A stretch of 24,000 nucleotides of DNA from the NCBI RefSeq assembly GCF_002953135.1, contig NZ_CP026373.1, positions 155,795-179,794 on the forward strand, read 5' to 3'. The notes beneath the pieces were generated by a model. That model searched no databases. It was given only the letters and a program-made list of their open reading frames with translations, and was not told where the DNA came from. Both the position numbers and the translations under genes were made by a program. Of this stretch, positions 8,263-21,012 are shown in pieces. Every line of letters starts with the position of its first letter. The stretch's first letter is position 1. Source of the DNA: Sphingobium sp. SCG-1 (lineage in GTDB: Bacteria > Pseudomonadota > Alphaproteobacteria > Sphingomonadales > Sphingomonadaceae).

Positions 8263-8326
8263 GGTTGGCCTCACTTGCCCGCAAGAGTTACTTAATGTTT
8301 GTCGACCTCGCCAACGGCCTATTGGT

Positions 8327-8647
8327 TCACGCGAACAATTCGGAGTGCGTTCCGGCCCGCGTGAAGCTGATTCTATTTTTCTCGACCATGTAGATCAGTA
8401 GGAAGTCGCCGCCGATATGGCACTCGCGGTGATCCGCCCATTCTCCTTTCAGAGCATGGTCCAACCACTCCGGTCCAAGCGGCGCATCATTGGCGATCAG
8501 GAGAAGCATCGCCTCTTTGAGCTGGTGCATATTGTACCGACCAGAACGCGAGAGCCTGTCCCAATCTTTCACGAAGCTTTTGGTATAGGCGGCTTCTCGG
8601 AGAAGGGACGCTCGCTTACTGCTGGCGGGCGTCTTGGTCGAGGGCAT
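8327..8647 (-). CDS. yafQ: type II toxin, YafQ family (RelE superfamily mRNA interferase)
   Basis: The translation ..YTKSFVKDWDRLSRSGRYNMHQLKEAMLLLIANDAPLGPEWLDHALKGEWADHRECHIGGDFLLIYMVEKNRISFTRAGTHSELFA aligns along its whole length with my memory of E. coli YafQ. The start is ATG 8647 or 8665, and both overlap the dinJ 3' end. Confidence 0.85.
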   Translation of the reverse strand: MPSTKTPASSKRASLLREAAYTKSFVKDWDRLSRSGRYNMHQLKEAMLLLIANDAPLGPEWLDHALKGEWADHRECHIGGDFLLIYMVEKNRISFTRAGTHSELFA

Positions 8648-8897
8648 CAAAAACGTCCTGGGCATCGGTGAAACGGGCGCGGCGCCCCTTCATCAAGGCG
8701 CGCGATTCCTCAATGGCTGCCCGCGTTTCGGCGTTCGGCACTTTGAGCTCGAACGGCAATGCATGATCGCGGGCGACGCGCGTGAGAGTCATGCGTACGA
8801 CGTCGGACACGGTAAGTCCCAACTCAGCCAGCACGGCGGCGGCTTCATCCCTTACAGCTTCGTCGATGCGTGCGCGCACGAAGGCGGTCGCGGCCAT
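8616..8897 (-). CDS. dinJ: type II antitoxin, DinJ/RelB family
   Basis: MAATAFVRARIDEAVRDEAAAVLAELGLTVSDVVRMTLTRVARDHALPFEL.. is nearly collinear with E. coli DinJ (MAANAFVRARIDEDLKNQAADVLAGMGLTISDLVRITLTKVAREKALPFDL). A GAGGAG SD lies 5-6 nt upstream of ATG 8897. Confidence 0.88.
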   Translation of the reverse strand: MAATAFVRARIDEAVRDEAAAVLAELGLTVSDVVRMTLTRVARDHALPFELKVPNAETRAAIEESRALMKGRRARFTDAQDVFDALDQDARQQ

Positions 8898-8925
8898 GTG
8901 TGACTCCTCGTCAAATCTCTAATTA

Positions 8926-8954
8926 AATGTAGCTCAACTGAGCAACAATTACAA
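8926..8954 (-). promoter_or_regulatory. candidate sigma-70 promoter of dinJ-yafQ with an operator palindrome in the spacer
   Basis: On the minus strand: TTGTAA (8954-8949), a 17-nt spacer, then TACATT (8931-8926). The spacer contains GCTCA-AC-TGAGC (8932-8943). Confidence 0.45.
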
Positions 8955-8974
8955 GCAGGCAGCGGCCGGGTGCG

Positions 8975-9973
8975 CTACAGAAACTGCGCCCCGGCATGAT
9001 CGTCGAACAGTTCGGCGCTGCGGACATATTCCGAGAGCACCTGCACCGACTTGTGGCGGCTGACGTCCTGCATCTTGAAGATGCTCGCCCGGTTGGCAGC
9101 CGCCTCGGTGAGGAATCCGGCGCGCAGCGAGTGGCCCGCATAGTGCGCCGGGTCGTAGCCGGCGGCGGCGGCGCAGCGCTGGACCAGGCGCGCGATGGCG
9201 CGGTCCGACATGCGATCGTCGGTGAGCTCATCGCGGCGAGAGAGCCGCCGGAAGAGGGGTCCCTCGGCATGGCCGGCCGCCGCCATCCAGGCTAGGAGCA
9301 ACGCCTTGGGACGAATCCGCTTGCCCTCCGGAATGGCGACGATAACGCCCTCGCGGGTCTGGTCGGTCTTCGACTTGGCGATCATCAACTCGATGCCTTT
9401 GTCGACGAGCCCGACGTCGGGCACATCGAACGCAACGAGTTCGGACCGGCGCAGCGCGGCCGACATGCCGATCGCGAGGAGCGCGCGGTCGCGCACCGCG
9501 CGCAGGCCATCGCCTTGGATCGTCTCGAGCATATGGCGTAGCGCGGCAGCGTCGGCGGCGCGCTTGCGGACCTTGGGCTTGCCGTGGGTCGCGCGGATGC
9601 CGGCGAGCACCTCGAGCAGCCGGCCGGAGCCGGGCACGGTGTTCGGCGGCGCATGACCGGCTTGGCGGTGATAATAGGCGATCGCCGAGATCCGCTTGCC
9701 GATGGTACGAGGGTTGGTGCCGGCATCGGCATCGGCGCTGGCGAACACCGCGACCGCATCGGGGCTCGCGGGCATTGCCTGGATGCCGTGCTGCTGACAC
9801 CAGGCGGTGAAGATCTTCCAGTCGGCCTCATAGGCGCGCCGGGTCGATGACGCCCGCGAGGCTTTGGCGTAGTCGGCGGCGCGCGCGATCTGCGCGTGGA
9901 GGATGTCGGGCAGCGCGGGCTGCTCGGCCACCACCGGCAACAGCCGCGACGGGTCCATGTCATCACTCATCAC
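8975..9973 (-). CDS. Cre-like tyrosine recombinase / site-specific integrase
   Basis: The N-domain (STRRAYEADWKIFTAWCQQHGIQAMPASPDAVAVF..TIGKRISAIAYYH) and the catalytic domain (ALRRSEL.., GHSLRAGFLTEAA.., SRHKSVQVLSEYVR) follow the Cre/P1-type layout, with the R..HxxR..H..Y residues present. The start is GTG 9973 or ATG 9970. Confidence 0.9.
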   Translation of the reverse strand: MMSDDMDPSRLLPVVAEQPALPDILHAQIARAADYAKASRASSTRRAYEADWKIFTAWCQQHGIQAMPASPDAVAVFASADADAGTNPRTIGKRISAIAYYHRQAGHAPPNTVPGSGRLLEVLAGIRATHGKPKVRKRAADAAALRHMLETIQGDGLRAVRDRALLAIGMSAALRRSELVAFDVPDVGLVDKGIELMIAKSKTDQTREGVIVAIPEGKRIRPKALLLAWMAAAGHAEGPLFRRLSRRDELTDDRMSDRAIARLVQRCAAAAGYDPAHYAGHSLRAGFLTEAAANRASIFKMQDVSRHKSVQVLSEYVRSAELFDDHAGAQFL

Positions 9974-10010
9974 GCGATCCTAACGCACCCCCTTCCGCGC
10001 ATCAATCTAC

Positions 10011-10036
10011 TGTCCGAGAATCACACTTCTCGGACA
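10011..10036. repeat. perfect 10-6-10 palindrome, candidate recombinase core site or operator
   Basis: TGTCCGAGAA (10011-10020), spacer TCACAC, then TTCTCGGACA (10027-10036). It sits 38 nt upstream of the recombinase start, at the point where G+C drops. Confidence 0.6.
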
Positions 10037-10192
10037 CAAGTTGCGATATCAGGAGTGTTAACGAACTCATTTTCAGGCGAGCAGAACCGTTTACGAAGCA
10101 TCCGAACCCCCCAGTCGGAACCAGCTGGTTGGACAACACCGATCGGTTCAGCTGGCGCAGTCGCCTGGCAGCCATAGCATCGCGCGAATCGG

Positions 10193-11080
10193 CTAGTGTG
10201 CAGAGTGTTTCCGGGCGACGACATTCAGTTCCTCGTTCTCGATGAAGTTCAGCATTTGCGGCACCATTTTCGGAAACGTTCTGTGCGGAGTGGCCGAACT
10301 GCAGTACGTGACGCTTTTGCCTGCGGCGCATCCCTTGAAGGATCGGCACCCGGACACCAGAGAATGATCTGGGATTGGCGTGCACCTGGCGCAGTTTGCC
10401 CACCAGGCGGCGGTCCCGCTCCCAAAGTCGGGGAACAGCTCGTCGGCAGGGTTGTGGATGATCAAAACAGCCGGGATGCCGGGACATTTGGCACCTTGAA
10501 GATCGTCTTCTGCAATTCCAGCGGCGGTCGCGACAACCGCACGCACTGGCAATTGCTTAGTTGCAAATATGGGAATGCCTTCAGCCATGGACCCACCGTC
10601 GGAATGACCGAGATAAGCGATCGCTCTTTGGTCGACACAATATCCTTGTTCTATCGTTGACGCCACAGCCGATTGGAGTTCGAGCGCGCGGCGCGAAAGA
10701 CTAACATGATCACTATAGGCCACGATGTTGCCGCGCCGGGTTGCCTCCGTGGTGAGATTGTAGAATGATTCTGATCGATGCCTGTCAAAGCCTGCCGGAG
10801 CAAATATGACGAGCAGTGGATAGGCCGTGGTGGCGTTATAATTATGTGGCGTTCGAACCCAGATCCGCAGCCCCGAGCTCGTCCTCAGCTCGTCGCCTAA
10901 ATCGATGTGTCCGCGACGACTTCCAGTAGCGCACGCCTCATTCAATCCAACAGCACGTGGCGCATCAGCCGTTGGCTGAATGGCGGGTTGGTACAGAAAT
11001 TGCGCAAGAATGCCGACTGCAATCGCCCCGGCAATCGCCGCAAAGCCGAGCTTTCCTCCAACCCGCGATACTTCATTCAC
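10193..11080 (-). CDS. membrane-anchored alpha/beta-hydrolase, PHB-depolymerase/LpqC-like esterase family
   Basis: There is an N-terminal hydrophobic anchor (FAAIAGAIAVGILAQFL). The core pattern is PLLVIFAPAG.., with nucleophile elbow GHSDGG and later IIHNPADELFP. The family call is from general pattern only. Confidence 0.6.
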   Translation of the reverse strand: MNEVSRVGGKLGFAAIAGAIAVGILAQFLYQPAIQPTADAPRAVGLNEACATGSRRGHIDLGDELRTSSGLRIWVRTPHNYNATTAYPLLVIFAPAGFDRHRSESFYNLTTEATRRGNIVAYSDHVSLSRRALELQSAVASTIEQGYCVDQRAIAYLGHSDGGSMAEGIPIFATKQLPVRAVVATAAGIAEDDLQGAKCPGIPAVLIIHNPADELFPDFGSGTAAWWANCARCTPIPDHSLVSGCRSFKGCAAGKSVTYCSSATPHRTFPKMVPQMLNFIENEELNVVARKHSAH

Positions 11081-14234: not shown

Positions 14235-14314
14235 TGTCTCACGGCAGTCAACCGGACTGCATCGGGTAATTAGGTCTAAGCAGCCGACCGTAAAAAGATG
14301 GAAGGAGTAGAGTG

Positions 14315-15106
14315 ATGGCAACAGTTGCAAATGCGACTCCGCTTGGGAGACCAAGCGATGATCGGAAGATTGTGAATTTTAAGATCCCCGCAATAGCCAC
14401 GGTAGGCCTTTTGGCGATCATGGTTTTCTACAGAACCTTTCAAAGGATGTTCGCCTGGACTGCGGGGCTCGATTCCACGGATCCGGTTTTCGACACTTAC
14501 TGGATGGGTCTACTCAAAGCTGAACTGGTATTAATTCCATTGCTCTGGGTTGGCGTGTGGTCTTACATTTGGTTCACGCGAGACAAAAACCTGTATTCAA
14601 TTACGCCTCGAGAGGAACTTCGCAGGTACTTTAATCTGGTTTTGTTCATTTTCGTTTACGCAGTTGCTGTCTGGTTTGCAGCGAGCTTTTTCGCGGAGCA
14701 AGATGCATCTTGGCACCAGACTGTCGTTCGCGACACCAGCTTCACACCGAGCCATGTGGTGCTCTTCTACGGCACCATGCCTTTGTACGTGACGTTCGGC
14801 GTCGGCTCTTTGCTTTACGCAACGACCCGTCTGCCAAAATATGCAGACAATATTTCGATTCCGCTGGTTCTAGCGGTGGCTGGTCCATTCATGATTCTCC
14901 CGAACCTGGGCTTCAATGAATGGGGCCACGCCTTCTGGATGATGGAAGAGGTGTTCACGGCGCCGCTGCACTGGGGCTTCGTTGTCATGGGCTGGACAGT
15001 CTTGGCTCTAGGTGGTCTGCTGCTGCAGATCGCGCAGCATATGATCACCCTTCTCAGGCAGATGGGCGAACTTGCCGAAAGCGAGGGTGAGGTCATCGCG
15101 GGCTAG
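14315..15106 (+). CDS. pmoC: copper membrane monooxygenase subunit C (PmoC/AmoC family)
   Basis: EQDASWHQTVVRDTSFTPSH gives D-x3-H-x12-H. NEWGHAFWMMEEVFTAPLHW gives N-x3-H-x13-H. There are multiple TM helices, and a GGAAGGAG SD lies upstream of ATG 14315 (a GTG at 14312 is also possible). Confidence 0.93.
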   Translation: MATVANATPLGRPSDDRKIVNFKIPAIATVGLLAIMVFYRTFQRMFAWTAGLDSTDPVFDTYWMGLLKAELVLIPLLWVGVWSYIWFTRDKNLYSITPREELRRYFNLVLFIFVYAVAVWFAASFFAEQDASWHQTVVRDTSFTPSHVVLFYGTMPLYVTFGVGSLLYATTRLPKYADNISIPLVLAVAGPFMILPNLGFNEWGHAFWMMEEVFTAPLHWGFVVMGWTVLALGGLLLQIAQHMITLLRQMGELAESEGEVIAG

Positions 15107-15114
15107 TTCAGGAT

Positions 15115-15149
15115 TATTGCGCGAGATCGGCTCGGTGTCGGTTTCGCGC
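15115..15149 (+). other. intercistronic stem-loop between subunit C and A genes
   Basis: TTGCGCGA (15115-15122) and TCGCGCAA (15142-15149) are exact complements with a 19-nt loop. An A-rich tract follows and there is no U-tract. Confidence 0.4.
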
Positions 15150-15221
15150 AAAACGAAAAACAACGGTTACAGGGGGCGCGCATGCGCTTGGCATTTCGTC
15201 GCCGGAAGCATGGAGAGTAAG

Positions 15222-16076
15222 ATGAGAGACAATCCAGGACAAACAATTTATGGAATAAAGTGGTCGAAGGAAGGGGCAAAGCTATCGCGGACCTTCGACA
15301 TCATCGTCGCGGTGATCCTGTTGCTGGCGGTCGCCGGCGCGACTCATCTTCACTTCATGCTACTTGCGGGCGATTGGGACTTTTGGGTCGATTGGAAAGA
15401 CCGGGAATTCTGGGTGACGTTGACGCCGATTGTGGCGATCATGTTTCCAGCGGCCTTGCAGTATATGTTCTGGAAATATTTTCGTCTCCCGATTGCCGCA
15501 ACGCTGGCAATTGTGGGCCTGATGATCGGCGAGTGGCTCAACCGCTATTACGGCTTCCATCTGTGGTCCTATTTCCCAATGAGCATGGTGTGGCCCGCAA
15601 TGCTACTGCCGAGCGCACTAGCTCTGGATGCCATTCTCTTGCTCACCGGCAATTTCCTGTTGACTGCGATATTCGGCGGAATGGCGTTTTCTCTGCTGTT
15701 CTACCCTTCGAACTGGTTCATGTTGGCCCCATACAGATTGCCCGTGCAGATCATGGATTATCTTGCATCTGTGGGTGACGTGATGGGTTACTCGTTCACG
15801 CGAACGGCAACTCCAGAATATCTTCGGATGATCGAACGCGGCACGTTAAGGACATTCGGTGGACACTCCGCGACGGTGTCGGCCTTTTTTAGCGGCTTTG
15901 TATGCATATTAACATATATGGTCTGGTGGGGCTTTGGCGTCCTTTTCTCGCGCGTGATCACCGTCCCGAATACGTTCAAGAAGCTCCTTGGCCTGGTTCC
16001 AAAGGCAGCCGGAACGTCGACGCAGCAAGGGGGCAAGGATACTAAGCTTACAACAAGCACCGTGGGGGGGGTTTGA
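15222..16076 (+). CDS. pmoA: copper membrane monooxygenase subunit A (PmoA/AmoA family)
   Basis: Hallmark strings are HLHFMLLAGDWDFWVDWKDREFWVT, IGEWLNRYYGF, LLFYPSNW and TPEYLRMIERGTLRTFGGH. ATG 15222 has GGAG 6 nt upstream (ATG 15210 is also possible). The track ORF start 15072 overlaps subunit C and is not family-like. Confidence 0.93.
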   Translation: MRDNPGQTIYGIKWSKEGAKLSRTFDIIVAVILLLAVAGATHLHFMLLAGDWDFWVDWKDREFWVTLTPIVAIMFPAALQYMFWKYFRLPIAATLAIVGLMIGEWLNRYYGFHLWSYFPMSMVWPAMLLPSALALDAILLLTGNFLLTAIFGGMAFSLLFYPSNWFMLAPYRLPVQIMDYLASVGDVMGYSFTRTATPEYLRMIERGTLRTFGGHSATVSAFFSGFVCILTYMVWWGFGVLFSRVITVPNTFKKLLGLVPKAAGTSTQQGGKDTKLTTSTVGGV

Positions 16077-16080
16077 GAAC

Positions 16081-17367
16081 ATGCAGCTAATAATAGGGAA
16101 AACACGCAACATCTTCCGGCGCTTGACGGCAGCTTTGCTGCTGATCGTCAGCCTTGCCGGAGCTGGTTTGTCATCGCCGGCTTTTGCCCATGGTGAGCGC
16201 AATCAGGAACCCTTTTTAAGGCTCCGTACCGCTCACTTCTACGATGTAAAATGGAGTTCCAAATCGGTCCCAGTGAACGGTAGTATAATCATAACTGGCC
16301 GGTTTAGACTCTTTAAAGAATGGCCAGCCAACCTTCCCAAGCCAGACGTTGCATTTTTGGGCAATGGTACGCCAGGACCAGTCTTCGTGAGGACGGAAAG
16401 CTATATCAACGGGGTTCCGGCAATCCAATCTGCGCCGCTGGAGCTCGACCGAGATTATGCTTTCAAATTTGTGCTAAAGGCACGAATTCCTGGCCGTCAC
16501 CACGTCCACCCTATGATCAACGCCCAAGAAGCGGGGCCGCTACTCGGCCCGGGGGAATGGGTGACAGTGACAGGTTCCCATGCCGACTTCAAATTGCCTG
16601 TTCGGACGATCAACGGAACCTTCATTCCCAATTTGGAGACGTGGGGACTTGATCGCGTTTACTTGTGGAACGGCCTGTGGTTCGCCATTGCTATTGGATG
16701 GCTACTCTTCTGGCTGCGGCGCCCACTCCTCATCACCCGCTACTTGGCGGTGACCGAAGGCAAGGAAGAGGCTCTGATCTCGAACAAGGACCGCGTTGTC
16801 GGAGCAATCCTGCTAGCATCGACCATCGTGATCGTCTTCGTTGGATATGTCGTCACTGACAACGCCTTCCCGCGCACAATTCCTTTGCAAGGCGGTCGAG
16901 CGAGCGTCGAACCTTTGCCGTTCACCCCCGGTGCAGTGAAGGTGTATGTTACCAAGTCGACTTATGATGTGCCTGGCCGCTCCCTAAAAATTGAGATGAA
17001 TCTCACCAATGAGGGGCCAGCGCCAGTCCAACTGGGTGAATTCCTCACGTCGAATCTCCGGTTTATCAACGCGAGCGTTCCAGCAGCAGTAAAGGGTCTG
17101 GATCCAAACTATCCGCGCGATGTCGTGCCGGTAAATGGTCTAAAAGTTAGTGACAACCGGCCTATCGCCCCGGGCGAAACGCGCAAAATTGCTGTTGCGG
17201 CGACAGACGTAGCTTGGGAAAAAGAAAGACTGACGAGCTTGTTGAACGATCCTGACAACCTGGTGGGGGGACTCTTGTTCTTCTTCGATGCGGCCGGGAA
17301 TCGATCAATCAGCAACGTGTCTGGGCCTATGGTACCAGTCTTTACGGCAGAAACGGTGAAAGGCTGA
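16081..17367 (+). CDS. pmoB: copper membrane monooxygenase subunit B (PmoB/AmoB family)
   Basis: The signal peptide ends ..SSPAFA, and the mature end is HGERNQEPFLRLRTAHFYDVKW. The H-x-H string is GRHHVHPMINAQEAGPLLGPGEWVTVTG. There are two central TM helices and a C-terminal beta-rich domain. ATG 16081 lies 4 nt after the subunit A stop. Confidence 0.93.
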   Translation: MQLIIGKTRNIFRRLTAALLLIVSLAGAGLSSPAFAHGERNQEPFLRLRTAHFYDVKWSSKSVPVNGSIIITGRFRLFKEWPANLPKPDVAFLGNGTPGPVFVRTESYINGVPAIQSAPLELDRDYAFKFVLKARIPGRHHVHPMINAQEAGPLLGPGEWVTVTGSHADFKLPVRTINGTFIPNLETWGLDRVYLWNGLWFAIAIGWLLFWLRRPLLITRYLAVTEGKEEALISNKDRVVGAILLASTIVIVFVGYVVTDNAFPRTIPLQGGRASVEPLPFTPGAVKVYVTKSTYDVPGRSLKIEMNLTNEGPAPVQLGEFLTSNLRFINASVPAAVKGLDPNYPRDVVPVNGLKVSDNRPIAPGETRKIAVAATDVAWEKERLTSLLNDPDNLVGGLLFFFDAAGNRSISNVSGPMVPVFTAETVKG

Positions 17368-17427: not shown

Positions 17428-17466
17428 GACGATGACATTGTAATCGTAGGATTTGGAGAGTTGATC

Positions 17467-18048
17467 ATGAGGCTGACTGGTCGTCGAGGAGTCGCCGCAT
17501 ATTGTTTAATCATTTTTTGCGCGCCGACATCTGCTCATGCTCACGGCGGCCTGACGATGGAGAAAGACGTCTGCAAGCTTCAGGTCGGCCAGTATCAAAT
17601 GCATTTCAACGGGTATCAGCCCGACAGCCAGGGTGCCGAGCAGTTCTGCGAAGATATTCCGAGTACCGGCAGAACCGTAATCGTTCTCGATTTCATTGAC
17701 GATAATCTGCGCAAGCTTCCGATCGATGTGAGGGTGGTCAAAGCGTCTGGTTCGGAGGCGGATCTTGCGAAGGCCACAGTCTTTCATGTCGAGCCGCGGG
17801 TCTATCCGACAGGATCACTTTCATTTTCGTATGATTTCAAGGAGGGGGGGAATTTTATCGGGCTGGTTTCCGCAGGTGGTGACACCGCGCATGTGGCACG
17901 ATTCCCGTTCGCTGTCGGCAGCATGTGGCTGCACTGGAGAAAACCTCTCGGACTCCTGGCGATCATGCTCCTCGCGGTCGGCGGACTGTTCGGATACTCT
18001 ACGCTCAAAAGACCGGCCAAACGAAGCAGCGCGCAACGCCGTGTATAG
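17467..18048 (+). CDS. secreted, C-terminally membrane-anchored protein in the PmoD/AmoD position (family unconfirmed)
   Basis: GGAGAG lies 6 nt upstream of ATG 17467. The signal peptide ends ..APTSAHA, followed by HGGLTMEKDVCKLQVGQYQMHFNGYQ, a ~140-aa soluble part, then a TM helix (LGLLAIMLLAVGGLFGY) and a basic tail. Confidence 0.75.
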   Translation: MRLTGRRGVAAYCLIIFCAPTSAHAHGGLTMEKDVCKLQVGQYQMHFNGYQPDSQGAEQFCEDIPSTGRTVIVLDFIDDNLRKLPIDVRVVKASGSEADLAKATVFHVEPRVYPTGSLSFSYDFKEGGNFIGLVSAGGDTAHVARFPFAVGSMWLHWRKPLGLLAIMLLAVGGLFGYSTLKRPAKRSSAQRRV

Positions 18049-18095: not shown

Positions 18096-18470
18096 GTGAT
18101 CAAGAAAATGCGAATATCGACCCTTTCGCTGGTGTGCATCGCCTGCATTCCATCTCCGCTTTTTGCGCATGCCGCGTTGGTTAAGTCAGTGCCGGGCAGT
18201 CGCGCCGTGATCGACAAGATGCCGCCACAGGTGGAACTGTGCTTCAATGAGGAAGTCGACCTCAAATTTTCGACATTTTCGATTAGCGACACGGCGGGCA
18301 AACATGCGCCGCTTGGACCTATAAAACTCGGTCGCGACGCGCGGTGCCTATCTGCCAAGAGCGGAGCTCTCGCCAAAGGCACCTATCAGCTTAACTATCA
18401 TGTACTCTCGAAGGATGGTCATATTGTTAAGTATGGACTGCAATTCACCATTCGTGCGGATTCCAAATAA
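18096..18470 (+). CDS. copC: periplasmic copper-binding protein CopC
   Basis: The signal peptide ends ..SPLFA, and the mature end is HAALVKSVPG. The family end-string GTYQLNYHVLSKDGHIVKYGLQFTI is present. The start is GTG 18096 or ATG 18108. Confidence 0.9.
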   Translation: MIKKMRISTLSLVCIACIPSPLFAHAALVKSVPGSRAVIDKMPPQVELCFNEEVDLKFSTFSISDTAGKHAPLGPIKLGRDARCLSAKSGALAKGTYQLNYHVLSKDGHIVKYGLQFTIRADSK

Positions 18471-18472
18471 CA

Positions 18473-20476
18473 GTGAATGAGTTGCTGTCAGCGTCCACGA
18501 CGGCAATTATCAACGCTACTTTGGCCTGGTTGATCGGAGCCTCGCTTTTCAGTCTGTCGACGGCGCATCTTTCAAACGCGGTTCTCTGGAACTGGCGAAA
18601 GAAGATGCGTTTGGGGACAATGGTCGCGGCGCTCATTTTACCGGTTGCTCTGGTTCTCAACCTGGCAGCGCGGTCGGCTTCCGCTAATGATGTCCATCTT
18701 TGGGCCATCATGACGGATCCCAAGCTGGTGCTGGAATTCGCCGCTGGAAGCTCGTCCGGTCAGGTGGTCTACATTCGCTTGCTTATGGCGTGTTTCGGAG
18801 CGGTTTGCCTCGGAGGTGCTTGGTTTTGGGACCGATCTGCGCCGTGGCGCCTGACCCATATCATTGCGCTTGCCGTCGGCGTTATCTCTGGCGTCATCGG
18901 ACCGCTCGGGGGCCATGTCGCCGGCGATGAGGCTACCCGATGGTTGGTGCCGATCCATATTGCCCATATCCTTGCAATGGCCACATGGCTCGGGGGGCTG
19001 CCTGGCTGGGTAGGCCTGGTCATCTGCACGAGCCAAACCCCATCATCGCCATTGCAAAGAGATGTGCTTGCAGCATTACGCAGCTTCTCCAAGCTGGCTA
19101 CAGCTTGCATGGCTATTATTATTACGTCAGGCGTGGCGCTGGCCAGCGCCTGGATCAAGTCACAGGGGGACTTGATCGGGACGACGTACGGCTGGCTTCT
19201 ATGCGCCAAAATATGCATTTTGATGGCTGTTTTGCTGTTGGCGAACCGGGTTCGCAAGCGACTGCTATCTGGCCACAATCGCCAGGGCCACAAACTCGGG
19301 CTGGGCGTTCCCGTCGCGCGCTGGGTGGTCGCGGAACTCGCGCTTGGCGGCGTGATTTTAGGATTGGCAGGAACACTCGCGCAGACGACTCCCGCGGTGC
19401 ATGATCAGCCGGTCTGGATCCTTCCTTTCAGGATCGCGCTTTCAGCAACATGGCCCGTATGGCCGACAATGTGGGTCTTTCCGATCGCGACCGGGGTCGC
19501 CTGTCTTTCGCTTCTGACCGGTTTCGCGCGCTGGGCGTCACTCTCCCGAGCCCGGCGCGCGCTCCTGGCGGCTGCGGGACTGTTAGCAGCCGGAGTTGCC
19601 GCCTGGGCCGCTAGCGTGCCGGCTTACCCAGAGACCTATCGGCGATCGACGTCGCCATATCTCACAGTCTCCATCGCGCAGGGCGCCAAGAATTACCGAG
19701 AAAATTGCACCGCTTGTCACGGACCCGGTGGACAAGGCGACGGGCCGCTTGCCAAATCGCTGCCCAAGCCACCGGCGAATCTCTCCCAACCCCACACAGC
19801 GCTACACACGGGCGGCGACCTCTATTGGTGGATCAAAAATGGCATTCCGGAAAGCGGTATGCCGCCATTCGGTGATATGTTTGATGAGCAGAGCATTTGG
19901 GACACTGCAAATTTCCTTCGGGTTTTTTCCCAAGGGTTTGAAGCCAGGGTGCTCTCGCCGCTGATCGCGCCAAACGGCCCCTGGCTCGGCGCACCGGACT
20001 TCTATTTTGAGCGATCCGATGGCTCGCCAGGCGAGCTGAAAGACTTTCGACACGCCGCAAACGTGCTGATCGCCGTATTTCCGGCTGCCTCCGGGTCGAC
20101 CTCGGCGCGCGTGAAGCAGCTTGTAATGGCCCAGCGCACATTGGCGGCGTCAGGGATTCAACTGATCCTCGTTACGCCGCACAAATTGCCGAATCTCCCT
20201 AACACGATTGTTCAAGTTAACGATGACGCCGCGCAGGTGATCGAGAGCTACGCATTCCTGTCGCGCACTCTAGCCAACAAAGGCCGCAGCAATGAACTCA
20301 ACATGAGCCGCAGCTATGTCGAGTTCCTCATCGATCGTTTCGGCTTCGTCCGCGGACGCTGGATACCCGAAGAAGATCGCGACGGTTGGCAGAATCTTGT
20401 GAAACTGAAGCAAATATCAAAGACGCTTTTCGACGAACCGGAGATACGCGGATCGCCGGATGCCCATATTCATTGA
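18473..20476 (+). CDS. copD: CopD-family membrane protein fused to a class I cytochrome c domain and a Cys-less thioredoxin/redoxin-like domain
   Basis: The N-terminal ~390 aa are polytopic and CopD-like (..HIAHILAMATWLGGLPGW..). The heme motif CTACH is encoded at 19706-19720, with a likely axial Met in GMPPF (ATG 19859-19861). The C-terminal ~165 aa follow a redoxin pattern (APDFYFERSDGSPGELKDF..VLIAVFPAASGST..EFLIDRFGFVRGRW), with the CxxC position replaced by AASG. The GTG start lies 2 nt after the copC stop and is uncertain. Confidence 0.85.
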   Translation: MNELLSASTTAIINATLAWLIGASLFSLSTAHLSNAVLWNWRKKMRLGTMVAALILPVALVLNLAARSASANDVHLWAIMTDPKLVLEFAAGSSSGQVVYIRLLMACFGAVCLGGAWFWDRSAPWRLTHIIALAVGVISGVIGPLGGHVAGDEATRWLVPIHIAHILAMATWLGGLPGWVGLVICTSQTPSSPLQRDVLAALRSFSKLATACMAIIITSGVALASAWIKSQGDLIGTTYGWLLCAKICILMAVLLLANRVRKRLLSGHNRQGHKLGLGVPVARWVVAELALGGVILGLAGTLAQTTPAVHDQPVWILPFRIALSATWPVWPTMWVFPIATGVACLSLLTGFARWASLSRARRALLAAAGLLAAGVAAWAASVPAYPETYRRSTSPYLTVSIAQGAKNYRENCTACHGPGGQGDGPLAKSLPKPPANLSQPHTALHTGGDLYWWIKNGIPESGMPPFGDMFDEQSIWDTANFLRVFSQGFEARVLSPLIAPNGPWLGAPDFYFERSDGSPGELKDFRHAANVLIAVFPAASGSTSARVKQLVMAQRTLAASGIQLILVTPHKLPNLPNTIVQVNDDAAQVIESYAFLSRTLANKGRSNELNMSRSYVEFLIDRFGFVRGRWIPEEDRDGWQNLVKLKQISKTLFDEPEIRGSPDAHIH

Positions 20477-20487
20477 GCGAGGAAGCT

Positions 20488-21012
20488 ATGTGGAAATCAA
20501 CTGTACTTGTTTTGCCTCTCATGATCGCAAGTTGCTCGGGAGGAGCCCAAAAGACTCCAGATGCCCCAAAGGAAGCGCACTCCGAGCACAACATGGCAGC
20601 GATGCCGGGCATGGGAAACATGAGCGATCCAGGACACGATATGTCTTCGATGGACGACGCAAAGCCGGTGGCTTCAACCGATACACCCCCACTAAAAATT
20701 GTCGGCCCCATTGATGGCGCGACGATTGGGCAGCGCGTGGCCGTTGTTTTTGAGGGACCCGCTCAGCTTTCCAAATATACGATGGATAATCCTGAGGCGG
20801 CAGCTCACCTGCACATTGCGCTCGACGATACTGAGCTTATGCCGATGGGCGAGCAGTTGATCAGCTTGGGCGCCAAGCAATATGTTTTCATATTCGATTT
20901 ACCAACAAAACCGGGACGTCACACGATAAGTCTCTATTGGGCCGATCGGCTTCACAAGAAGATTGAAAATGGTGTCCAGACTATATCTGTAGAAGTGACC
21001 GGTTCCAAGTAA
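20488..21012 (+). CDS. lipoprotein with Met/His-rich copper-type motif and a DUF4399-like beta domain
   Basis: GAGGAAG SD then ATG 20488. The lipobox is LMIASC. The metal-type stretch is HSEHNMAAMPGMGNMSDPGHDMSSMDD. A ~115-aa domain follows with AAHLHIALDD and GRHTISLYW, which resembles what I recall of DUF4399. The track start 20386 overlaps copD. Confidence 0.8.
   Translation: MWKSTVLVLPLMIASCSGGAQKTPDAPKEAHSEHNMAAMPGMGNMSDPGHDMSSMDDAKPVASTDTPPLKIVGPIDGATIGQRVAVVFEGPAQLSKYTMDNPEAAAHLHIALDDTELMPMGEQLISLGAKQYVFIFDLPTKPGRHTISLYWADRLHKKIENGVQTISVEVTGSK

Follow-up and report, generated by a model that had tools for sequence, protein, structure and literature searches.

The gene at positions 18473 to 20476 of the DNA analysed here, a stretch of 24,000 nucleotides from contig NZ_CP026373.1 of Sphingobium sp. 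SCG-1 (the whole of which is referred to as the window), almost certainly encodes a member of the long-form CopD family, in which a CopD membrane core, a class I cytochrome c and a thioredoxin-like domain lacking catalytic cysteines are combined in a single protein. The gene lies directly downstream of copC in a cluster headed by the structural genes of a copper-containing membrane monooxygenase (CuMMO), the group that includes particulate methane monooxygenase (pMMO), ammonia monooxygenase (AMO) and their hydrocarbon-oxidizing relatives. The best explanation overall, in which our confidence falls somewhat short of even, is that the protein handles copper in connection with the CuMMO, its haem altering the redox state of the metal. 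The gene and its parts are as follows, residues being numbered from the first of the encoded protein.

18473-20476, forward strand: long-form CopD gene (CopD core, cytochrome c and Cys-less thioredoxin-like domain), 667 residues.
18473-19387, forward strand: eight-helix CopD/YebZ core, residues 1-305, from hhalign against YebZ and Pfam CopD.
19388-19612, forward strand: conserved periplasmic loop and two added transmembrane helices, residues 306-380, from AlphaFold2, hydropathy and conservation.
19613-19948, forward strand: mono-haem class I cytochrome c domain, residues 381-492, from Pfam PF13442/PF00034, Foldseek and conservation.
19949-20452, forward strand: thioredoxin-fold (peroxiredoxin/ResA/TlpA-like) domain without catalytic Cys, residues 493-660, from profile searches, AlphaFold2 and Foldseek.
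20453-20473, forward strand: disordered tail SPDAHIH with an HxH motif, residues 661-667, from a predicted local distance difference test (pLDDT) score of 34 and conservation.

An earlier note on this DNA, made from the sequence alone, had read the region as a single open reading frame encoding 667 residues, and this reading stands with its coordinates unchanged. The gene starts with GTG at 18473, 2 nt beyond the stop codon of copC, and continues in one uninterrupted frame to a TGA at 20474-20476. Its product aligns over 100% of its length with more than 40 database proteins of 662-670 residues each, and the two closest of these (82% and 75% identity) both open with MNELLSAS. Since these homologues begin in the same manner and align end to end, the start codon and the single-gene status of copD are confirmed. 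A frameshift, or the mis-joining of separate genes through a sequencing error, was considered as the source of the unusual architecture and is ruled out by the same-length, end-to-end homologues. The nearest homologues overall are 75-82% identical to the window protein and the nearest named relatives, from Bradyrhizobium and Panacagrimonas, 41-43%; an exact-sequence look-up of the protein in the databases returned no record. When the host genome (4.51 Mb in two contigs, the gene being on the second) was searched with PF05425, the long CopD was the sole match, and thus no ordinary short CopD was found. In Pfam terms the architecture consists of CopD followed by Cytochrome_CBB3/Cytochrom_C, each above its curated cut-off. 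Conservation is given below as counts over an alignment of 106 family members, in which identity extends down to 24%.

The first ~390 residues are polytopic and CopD-like, as had been proposed. Pfam CopD (PF05425) scores 66.2 bits on residues 200-302 against a cut-off of 32.1, and hhalign of the family profile with Escherichia coli YebZ places residues 10-305 on residues 9-289 of the 290 in YebZ (probability 97.8%, E = 7.8e-13). In this alignment His148 (18914-18916) and His165 (18965-18967), which are retained in 105 of the 106 members, fall on YebZ His135 and His154, both of which are required for copper uptake (PMC11923076). The core is followed by a loop with the motif AVHDQPVW.LPFR, whose His310 (19400-19402) is likewise present in 105/106 members, and by added transmembrane helices at residues 332-356 and 359-379. 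The AlphaFold2 model of the full protein (mean pLDDT 84.4, predicted template modelling score 0.70) contains ten long helices, and hydropathy gives the same ten segments. Lys/Arg-rich stretches (WRKKMR, SLSRARRA) lie on the odd-numbered loops, in a positive-inside pattern, and the conserved histidines lie on the even-numbered loops. The topology predicted from the model is N-out and C-out, such that the two added helices would bring the C-terminal half out into the periplasm.

The cytochrome c homology proper spans residues ~398-491. The haem-binding motif CTACH (Cys412, Cys415 and His416) is encoded at 19706-19720, and the distal ligand Met463, at 19859-19861, forms with Pro464 part of the sequence GMPPF; the class I signature that had been noted in this segment, together with its exact coordinates, is therefore upheld by Pfam scores above the cut-offs and by ligands conserved throughout the family. 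Both Cytochrome_CBB3 (PF13442, 48.7 bits against 27) and Cytochrom_C (PF00034, 45.5 against 21.3) match residues 401-483, and CxxCH and the Met-Pro pair occur in 106/106 members, with His441 and His445 equally invariant. A structural counterpart given here by Foldseek is the class I cytochrome c552 9vr0 (41% identity, TMt 0.76). Covalent attachment of the haem is predicted from the sequence motif, and the model would place the domain in the periplasm, where attachment is possible because CcmE is encoded in the host genome (contig C1).

Related cytochrome c domains are also fused to CopC-CopD proteins of 671-782 residues and to FTR1-type iron permeases of 625-710 residues, which were met among the weaker matches to the window protein (P0093-P0099). 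The occurrence of both kinds of fusion makes redox-coupled metal transport seem a recurrent theme.

That the C-terminal part has a redoxin fold without CxxC, another element of the earlier reading, is supported by profile matches, structure prediction and structure comparison. When the C-terminal 180 residues were searched alone, the Pfam AhpC/TSA families remained below their gathering scores, PF00578 reaching 14.9 bits against 26 (E = 0.026) and PF08534 12 against 26.6. A profile built from 17 sequences of the domain matched AhpE (8e-5) and ResA (8e-4) among PDB sequences, and also glutathione peroxidases and TlpA; all of the significant matches, and nearly all of the others, are thioredoxin-fold proteins. 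In the AlphaFold2 model the domain has a pLDDT of ~90 and the order β-hairpin, β-α-β, β-α, β-β-α, and Foldseek returned Bcp4, AhpE, ResA, DsbE/CcmG, TlpA and BsSco at a probability of 1.00, ResA giving the best fit (TMt 0.68-0.73) and BsSco, at rank 5, a TMt of 0.55. The thioredoxin fold is thus real. Its active site, by contrast, is missing. The turn of AhpE that carries the peroxidatic Cys corresponds in the alignment to a two-residue deletion in the CopD family, the position of the CxxC reads FPAASGSTSAR in the window protein (P0001), the domain contains no Cys whatsoever in 88 of the 106 members and a conserved CxxC is found in none. The loss of cysteine across the 106 members indicates a family-wide trait, and not the decay of the copy in the window. 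As the family throughout lacks the catalytic CxxC and the peroxidatic Cys, the sequences predict that thiol-disulfide and peroxidase chemistry are excluded for all of its members. An active peroxiredoxin or thiol-disulfide oxidoreductase, considered as a candidate function, was rejected on the same ground.

What the domain has conserved instead is a set of residues comprising Asp621 and Arg627, both invariant, Arg546 (103/106), Arg629 (105/106) and Trp630 (104/106), together with the end of the protein. His667 is present in every member and His665 in 104/106, Asp663 is conserved, and the ending PPPxDHVH is common to the copies of Nitrosovibrio, Nitrosomonas and comammox Nitrospira. The earlier suggestion that this fold could be a Sco-like copper-binding module did not survive closer inspection: neither the CxxxC nor the His ligands of Sco are present in the family, the fold is nearer to ResA, TlpA and the peroxiredoxins, and the only conserved histidines are those of the terminal HxH. 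A Sco1/SenC-type copper site was accordingly discarded, there being no conserved Cys and the distal His being missing. It could be argued, in a broader form of the idea, that the thioredoxin-like domain and the HxH tail together constitute a functional copper site, the protein acting as a Sco-like chaperone that keeps copper ready for the enzyme while its haem tunes the redox state of the metal. A Sco-cytochrome c fusion of Pseudomonas putida reportedly displays intramolecular electron transfer. The presence of BsSco among the Foldseek matches, the conservation of the HxH tail and of Asp663, and the use of the term Sco1-like for the domain in a recent paper (PMC11923076) are all in keeping with such a role. 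It should be emphasized, however, that in addition to the missing Sco ligands, the absence of any cysteine from the domain in most members and the better fit to ResA than to BsSco, the conserved residues are mostly arginines, with Asp621 and Trp630, and are unlike a metal site, while the model leaves the tail that would supply the histidines disordered. In its Sco-type version the proposal is excluded because the Sco ligands are missing, and we consider a chaperone of this general kind to be unlikely.

The domain appears to exist only within the CopD-cytochrome c fusion. A search of 1.84 billion representative proteins with the domain alone yielded 205 clusters at E ≤ 0.001; among the best 150 of these 205 clusters the proteins are mostly of 620-700 residues, and the match is at the extreme C-terminus. 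The shorter matches that were inspected begin partway through the cytochrome domain or the ninth helix and, as they start within the architecture, are truncated calls of the three-domain protein. No genuine stand-alone C-terminal domain was found in the 1.84-billion-protein search or in the genome loci examined. Short open reading frames at 9971-10435 of a Rhodoferax locus (L060) and 9323-10246 of a locus from a Polyangiaceae bin (L062) start within the domain and match only the last 80-145 residues, including PPPD.HVH; they are without a cytochrome or CopD part, adjoin genes of acyl-CoA metabolism and have the look of remnants left by an earlier cluster.

The distribution of the long CopD links it to CuMMOs. 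The extended form of the operon, pmoCAB-pmoD-copC-copD(-PCuAC), and its nitrifier version, amoCAB(E)D-copCD, are known from earlier work (PMC6189053, PMC3764937, preprint 10.1101/138586). We compared the proteins of the window, by tblastn, with 80 loci from species-representative genomes, and found the long CopD in synteny with CuMMO genes at 16 loci of alpha-, beta- and gammaproteobacteria and Nitrospiraceae. The order C-A-B, 195-residue protein, CopC and long CopD recurs in Bradyrhizobium frederickii, Panacagrimonas, Methylibium, Polaromonas, Nitrosovibrio, three Nitrosomonadaceae, a Burkholderiales, a Rhodocyclaceae, a Hyphomicrobium, a gammaproteobacterium and Nitrospiraceae, and in Panacagrimonas perspica it was seen with called genes and Pfam labels. 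In Methylocapsa polymorpha copC-copD stands by itself, and an isolated pmoC and a PCuAC-like gene lie at a distance of 6-8 kb. For loci without a CuMMO in the flank the whole assemblies were searched for AmoA and AmoC. One or the other was found in 23 of the 28 genomes with a three-domain CopD, the five negatives all being metagenome bins, and in none of 14 control genomes. The three-domain fusion thus tracks CuMMO, which, with copC directly upstream in the window, bears out the partnership with CopC and the connection with CuMMO operons that had been put forward from the window alone. The corresponding genes of the window are listed here.

14312-17367, forward strand: CuMMO structural genes C-A-B, the head of the cluster, from Pfam and NCBIfam matches above cut-off, NCBIfam assigning them to bacterial AmoCAB.
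17461-18048, forward strand: gene in the AmoD/PmoD slot, encoding a secreted protein of 195 residues with a C-terminal membrane anchor, from tblastn synteny.
18096-18470, forward strand: copC partner gene, from Pfam CopC, NCBIfam and alignment with E. coli YobA.
20488-21012, forward strand: downstream lipoprotein gene, from a lipobox (MIASC), a Met/His-rich stretch and weak similarity to DUF4399 (E = 0.0057).

The protein encoded at 17461-18048 has no Pfam or NCBIfam match. It shares 32-53% identity (tblastn) with the product of the same-slot gene in 22 related clusters and 42-52% with that of the amoD-slot gene of Nitrosomonadaceae loci, and from the latter similarity we conclude that it is of the AmoD/PmoD type. 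Cleavage of its signal peptide between SAHA and HGG would expose an N-terminal His, and it contains C-x8-M-H (CKLQVGQYQMH), not the Cx7MxH motif that has been tied to formation of a CuA centre (PMC6189053). These features bear on a second explanation, according to which the haem is a membrane-tethered electron carrier that feeds or drains the CuMMO or the AmoD/PmoD protein, whose gene lies two places upstream, the CopD core serving mainly as an anchor and as a supplier of copper. Cytochrome c and CuA form a classical donor-acceptor pair. The tight link of the gene to CuMMO whatever the substrate type, be it in nitrifiers, comammox organisms or alkane-type clusters, speaks for this role, and PmoD, itself needed for copper-dependent growth, can build a CuA-like electron-transfer centre (PMC6189053). 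In the window, however, the AmoD-slot protein has Cx8MH in place of the CuA-linked motif; moreover, the gene is absent from many functional CuMMO operons (PMC6189053, PMC3764937), a copCD mutant of Methylosinus trichosporium OB3b is not reported in a review to lose pMMO function (PMC7558416), and fusions of cytochrome c to CopC-CopD proteins occur beyond the long-form subfamily too. An electron carrier dedicated to the monooxygenase therefore appears improbable to us.

CopC of the window has a signal peptide, a mature N-terminal His and a DGH motif, as in the Cu(II)-type site of YobA, and no Met-rich Cu(I) site was detected in the alignment with that protein. This restriction to a Cu(II)-type site could also be accommodated if the flow were reversed, such that the haem, on the periplasmic side, converts Cu(I) into Cu(II) and so loads CopC for the monooxygenase, the CopD core then releasing copper and not importing it. 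In FTR1-type systems transport goes together with oxidation of the metal, and FTR1 permease-cytochrome c fusions exist. Furthermore, a cuprous oxidase accompanies CopC and CopD in Cop/Pco systems (PMC7558416). Against the reversal stands YebZ, the sole CopD to have been tested directly, which imports copper (PMC11923076); both of its import-critical histidines are conserved in the window protein, and evidence for export by any CopD is nil. We give reversed flow, too, only a small chance of being correct.

We thus return to the proposal that the haem acts on copper in the service of transport or delivery, for which cupric reduction by the tethered haem is the possible mechanism that we put forward, with slightly less assurance than the general reading. 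In this scheme Cu(II) would be captured by the N-terminal His site of CopC and presented at the His148/His165 entrance of CopD, where the tethered haem, itself reduced by the respiratory chain, would donate one electron to yield Cu(I); the Cu(I) would then be transported or passed along to supply the monooxygenase. The thioredoxin-like domain, its thiol chemistry lost, would be a scaffold or docking surface, and the HxH tail may provide a transient copper ligand. Reduction of Cu(II) by the haem domain is plausible because CopC keeps only a Cu(II)-type site and because it is acknowledged to be an open point in which oxidation state copper passes through CopD (PMC12362106, PMC11923076), reduction en route through CopD being expressly described as still to be determined (PMC12362106). 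By analogy, the cytochrome c fusions to CopC-CopD and FTR1 may lend support to haem-coupled transport.

Several observations weigh against this interpretation. According to a review, a copCD mutant of strain OB3b shows these genes to lie outside the copper switch and to have no critical part in copper uptake (PMC7558416). The gene is not found beside the CuMMO operon of Nitrosomonas sp. Is79 (PMC3764937) or beside those of gammaproteobacterial methanotrophs (PMC6189053), and, as many CuMMO organisms have no adjacent long CopD, the protein cannot be universally required. A bolder variant, to which we attach a low probability, is that the periplasmic half is a device dedicated to the metallation or redox servicing of CuMMOs: it would reduce CopC-bound Cu(II), and its HxH tail (compare the HxH pair of the CuB site of PmoB) would transfer the copper directly to the monooxygenase or AmoD/PmoD, so that import into the cytoplasm through the CopD core would be secondary or absent. 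Were this true, the acquisition and retention of active-site copper by CuMMOs could be tested with one gene.

The cluster may include a further copper-handling component. The lipoprotein gene begins with an ATG 11 nt past the copD stop, preceded by the Shine-Dalgarno sequence GAGGAAG, and its Met/His-rich stretch is HSEHNMAAMPGMGNMSDPGHDMSSM. Homologues lie beside the long CopD at other loci (L001, L003, L004, L005, L007 and L009), Bradyrhizobium, Panacagrimonas, Methylibium and Polaromonas being among the genera with such a neighbour, and the lipoprotein is thus a probable fourth component of the module with a role in copper handling. Scans for terminators and promoters within the cluster gave sites no more numerous than in shuffled sequence, and hence an operon is neither supported nor broken by them.

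The CuMMO subunits and CopD do not have the same nearest relatives. In Bradyrhizobium, Hyphomicrobium and a gammaproteobacterium (L001, L002, L020 and L027 were compared) AmoA is 61-63% identical to that of the window while the CopD core is only 30-35% identical, whereas in Panacagrimonas AmoA is 44% identical and the CopD core, also at 44%, is the best match. This disagreement points to a possible reshuffling of accessory genes among clusters. With regard to the replicon, the left 9.9 kb of the window match mainly plasmids of Sphingobium, Sphingomonas and Novosphingobium, and the interval 8314-9774, containing an integrase and a YafQ/RelB toxin-antitoxin pair, is 92% identical to a plasmid of Sphingomonas sp. 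NBWT7. No near-identical record for the CuMMO cluster was found in the plasmid collection searched. The host replicon is apparently the second replicon of a sphingomonad, and its CuMMO seems to be of the hydrocarbon type.

A redox cofactor that is tied to a copper permease and travels with monooxygenase genes offers an experimental handle on two questions, namely how CuMMOs are supplied with copper and in which oxidation state the metal is moved by CopD proteins. The copy in the window adds little by itself; the useful features are those of the family: the Cys-free C-terminal domain, the near-invariant HxH end and the restriction of the domain to the fusion. The earlier note was unaware of any characterization of the architecture. 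This is correct with respect to function, but the layout is already in print: a 2025 paper mentions three-domain CopD in one sentence, with that of M. trichosporium OB3b among the examples, as a subgroup making up ~4% of CopD and with a C-terminal domain termed Sco1-like (PMC11923076). The long form is therefore a known kind of CopD, and it is the standard copD of CuMMO clusters.

Among known systems, the closest to that of the window are the long-form CopDs of the extended amo and pmo operons of beta-proteobacterial nitrifiers, comammox Nitrospira and M. trichosporium OB3b, which are of ~640-700 residues, are encoded downstream of C-A-B with an amoD/pmoD-type gene and copC in front of them, and have the same three domains in the same order, the same invariant residues and the same HxH end. 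The window copy differs from those of the nitrifiers in its host replicon, apparently that of a sphingomonad, and in sharing only 29-35% identity with them. E. coli YebZ resembles the eight-helix core over its full length, possesses both import-critical histidines and likewise has a CopC-type partner gene immediately upstream; in contrast with the long form, however, its 290 residues include no extra helices, haem domain or thioredoxin-like domain, the yobA-yebZ-yebY operon encodes a third partner, YebY (DUF2511), and there is no link to a CuMMO. Similarly, Bacillus subtilis YcnJ, a CopC-CopD-YtkA fusion that has been proposed to receive Cu(II) from its His-brace domain (PMC12362106), combines a CopD core with extracytoplasmic copper-handling domains, but these additions are CopC and YtkA and carry no redox cofactor. 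The C-terminal domain shares its fold and order of secondary structure with ResA, TlpA and CcmG and with the 1-Cys peroxiredoxins AhpE and Bcp, from all of which it differs in lacking the catalytic CxxC or the peroxidatic Cys. Finally, the cupric reductase CcoG, which is membrane-bound and reduces Cu(II) to Cu(I) for the supply of bacterial cuproenzymes, is a functional analogue only of the activity proposed here, as, according to a review, it is unrelated to long-form CopD and employs another cofactor.

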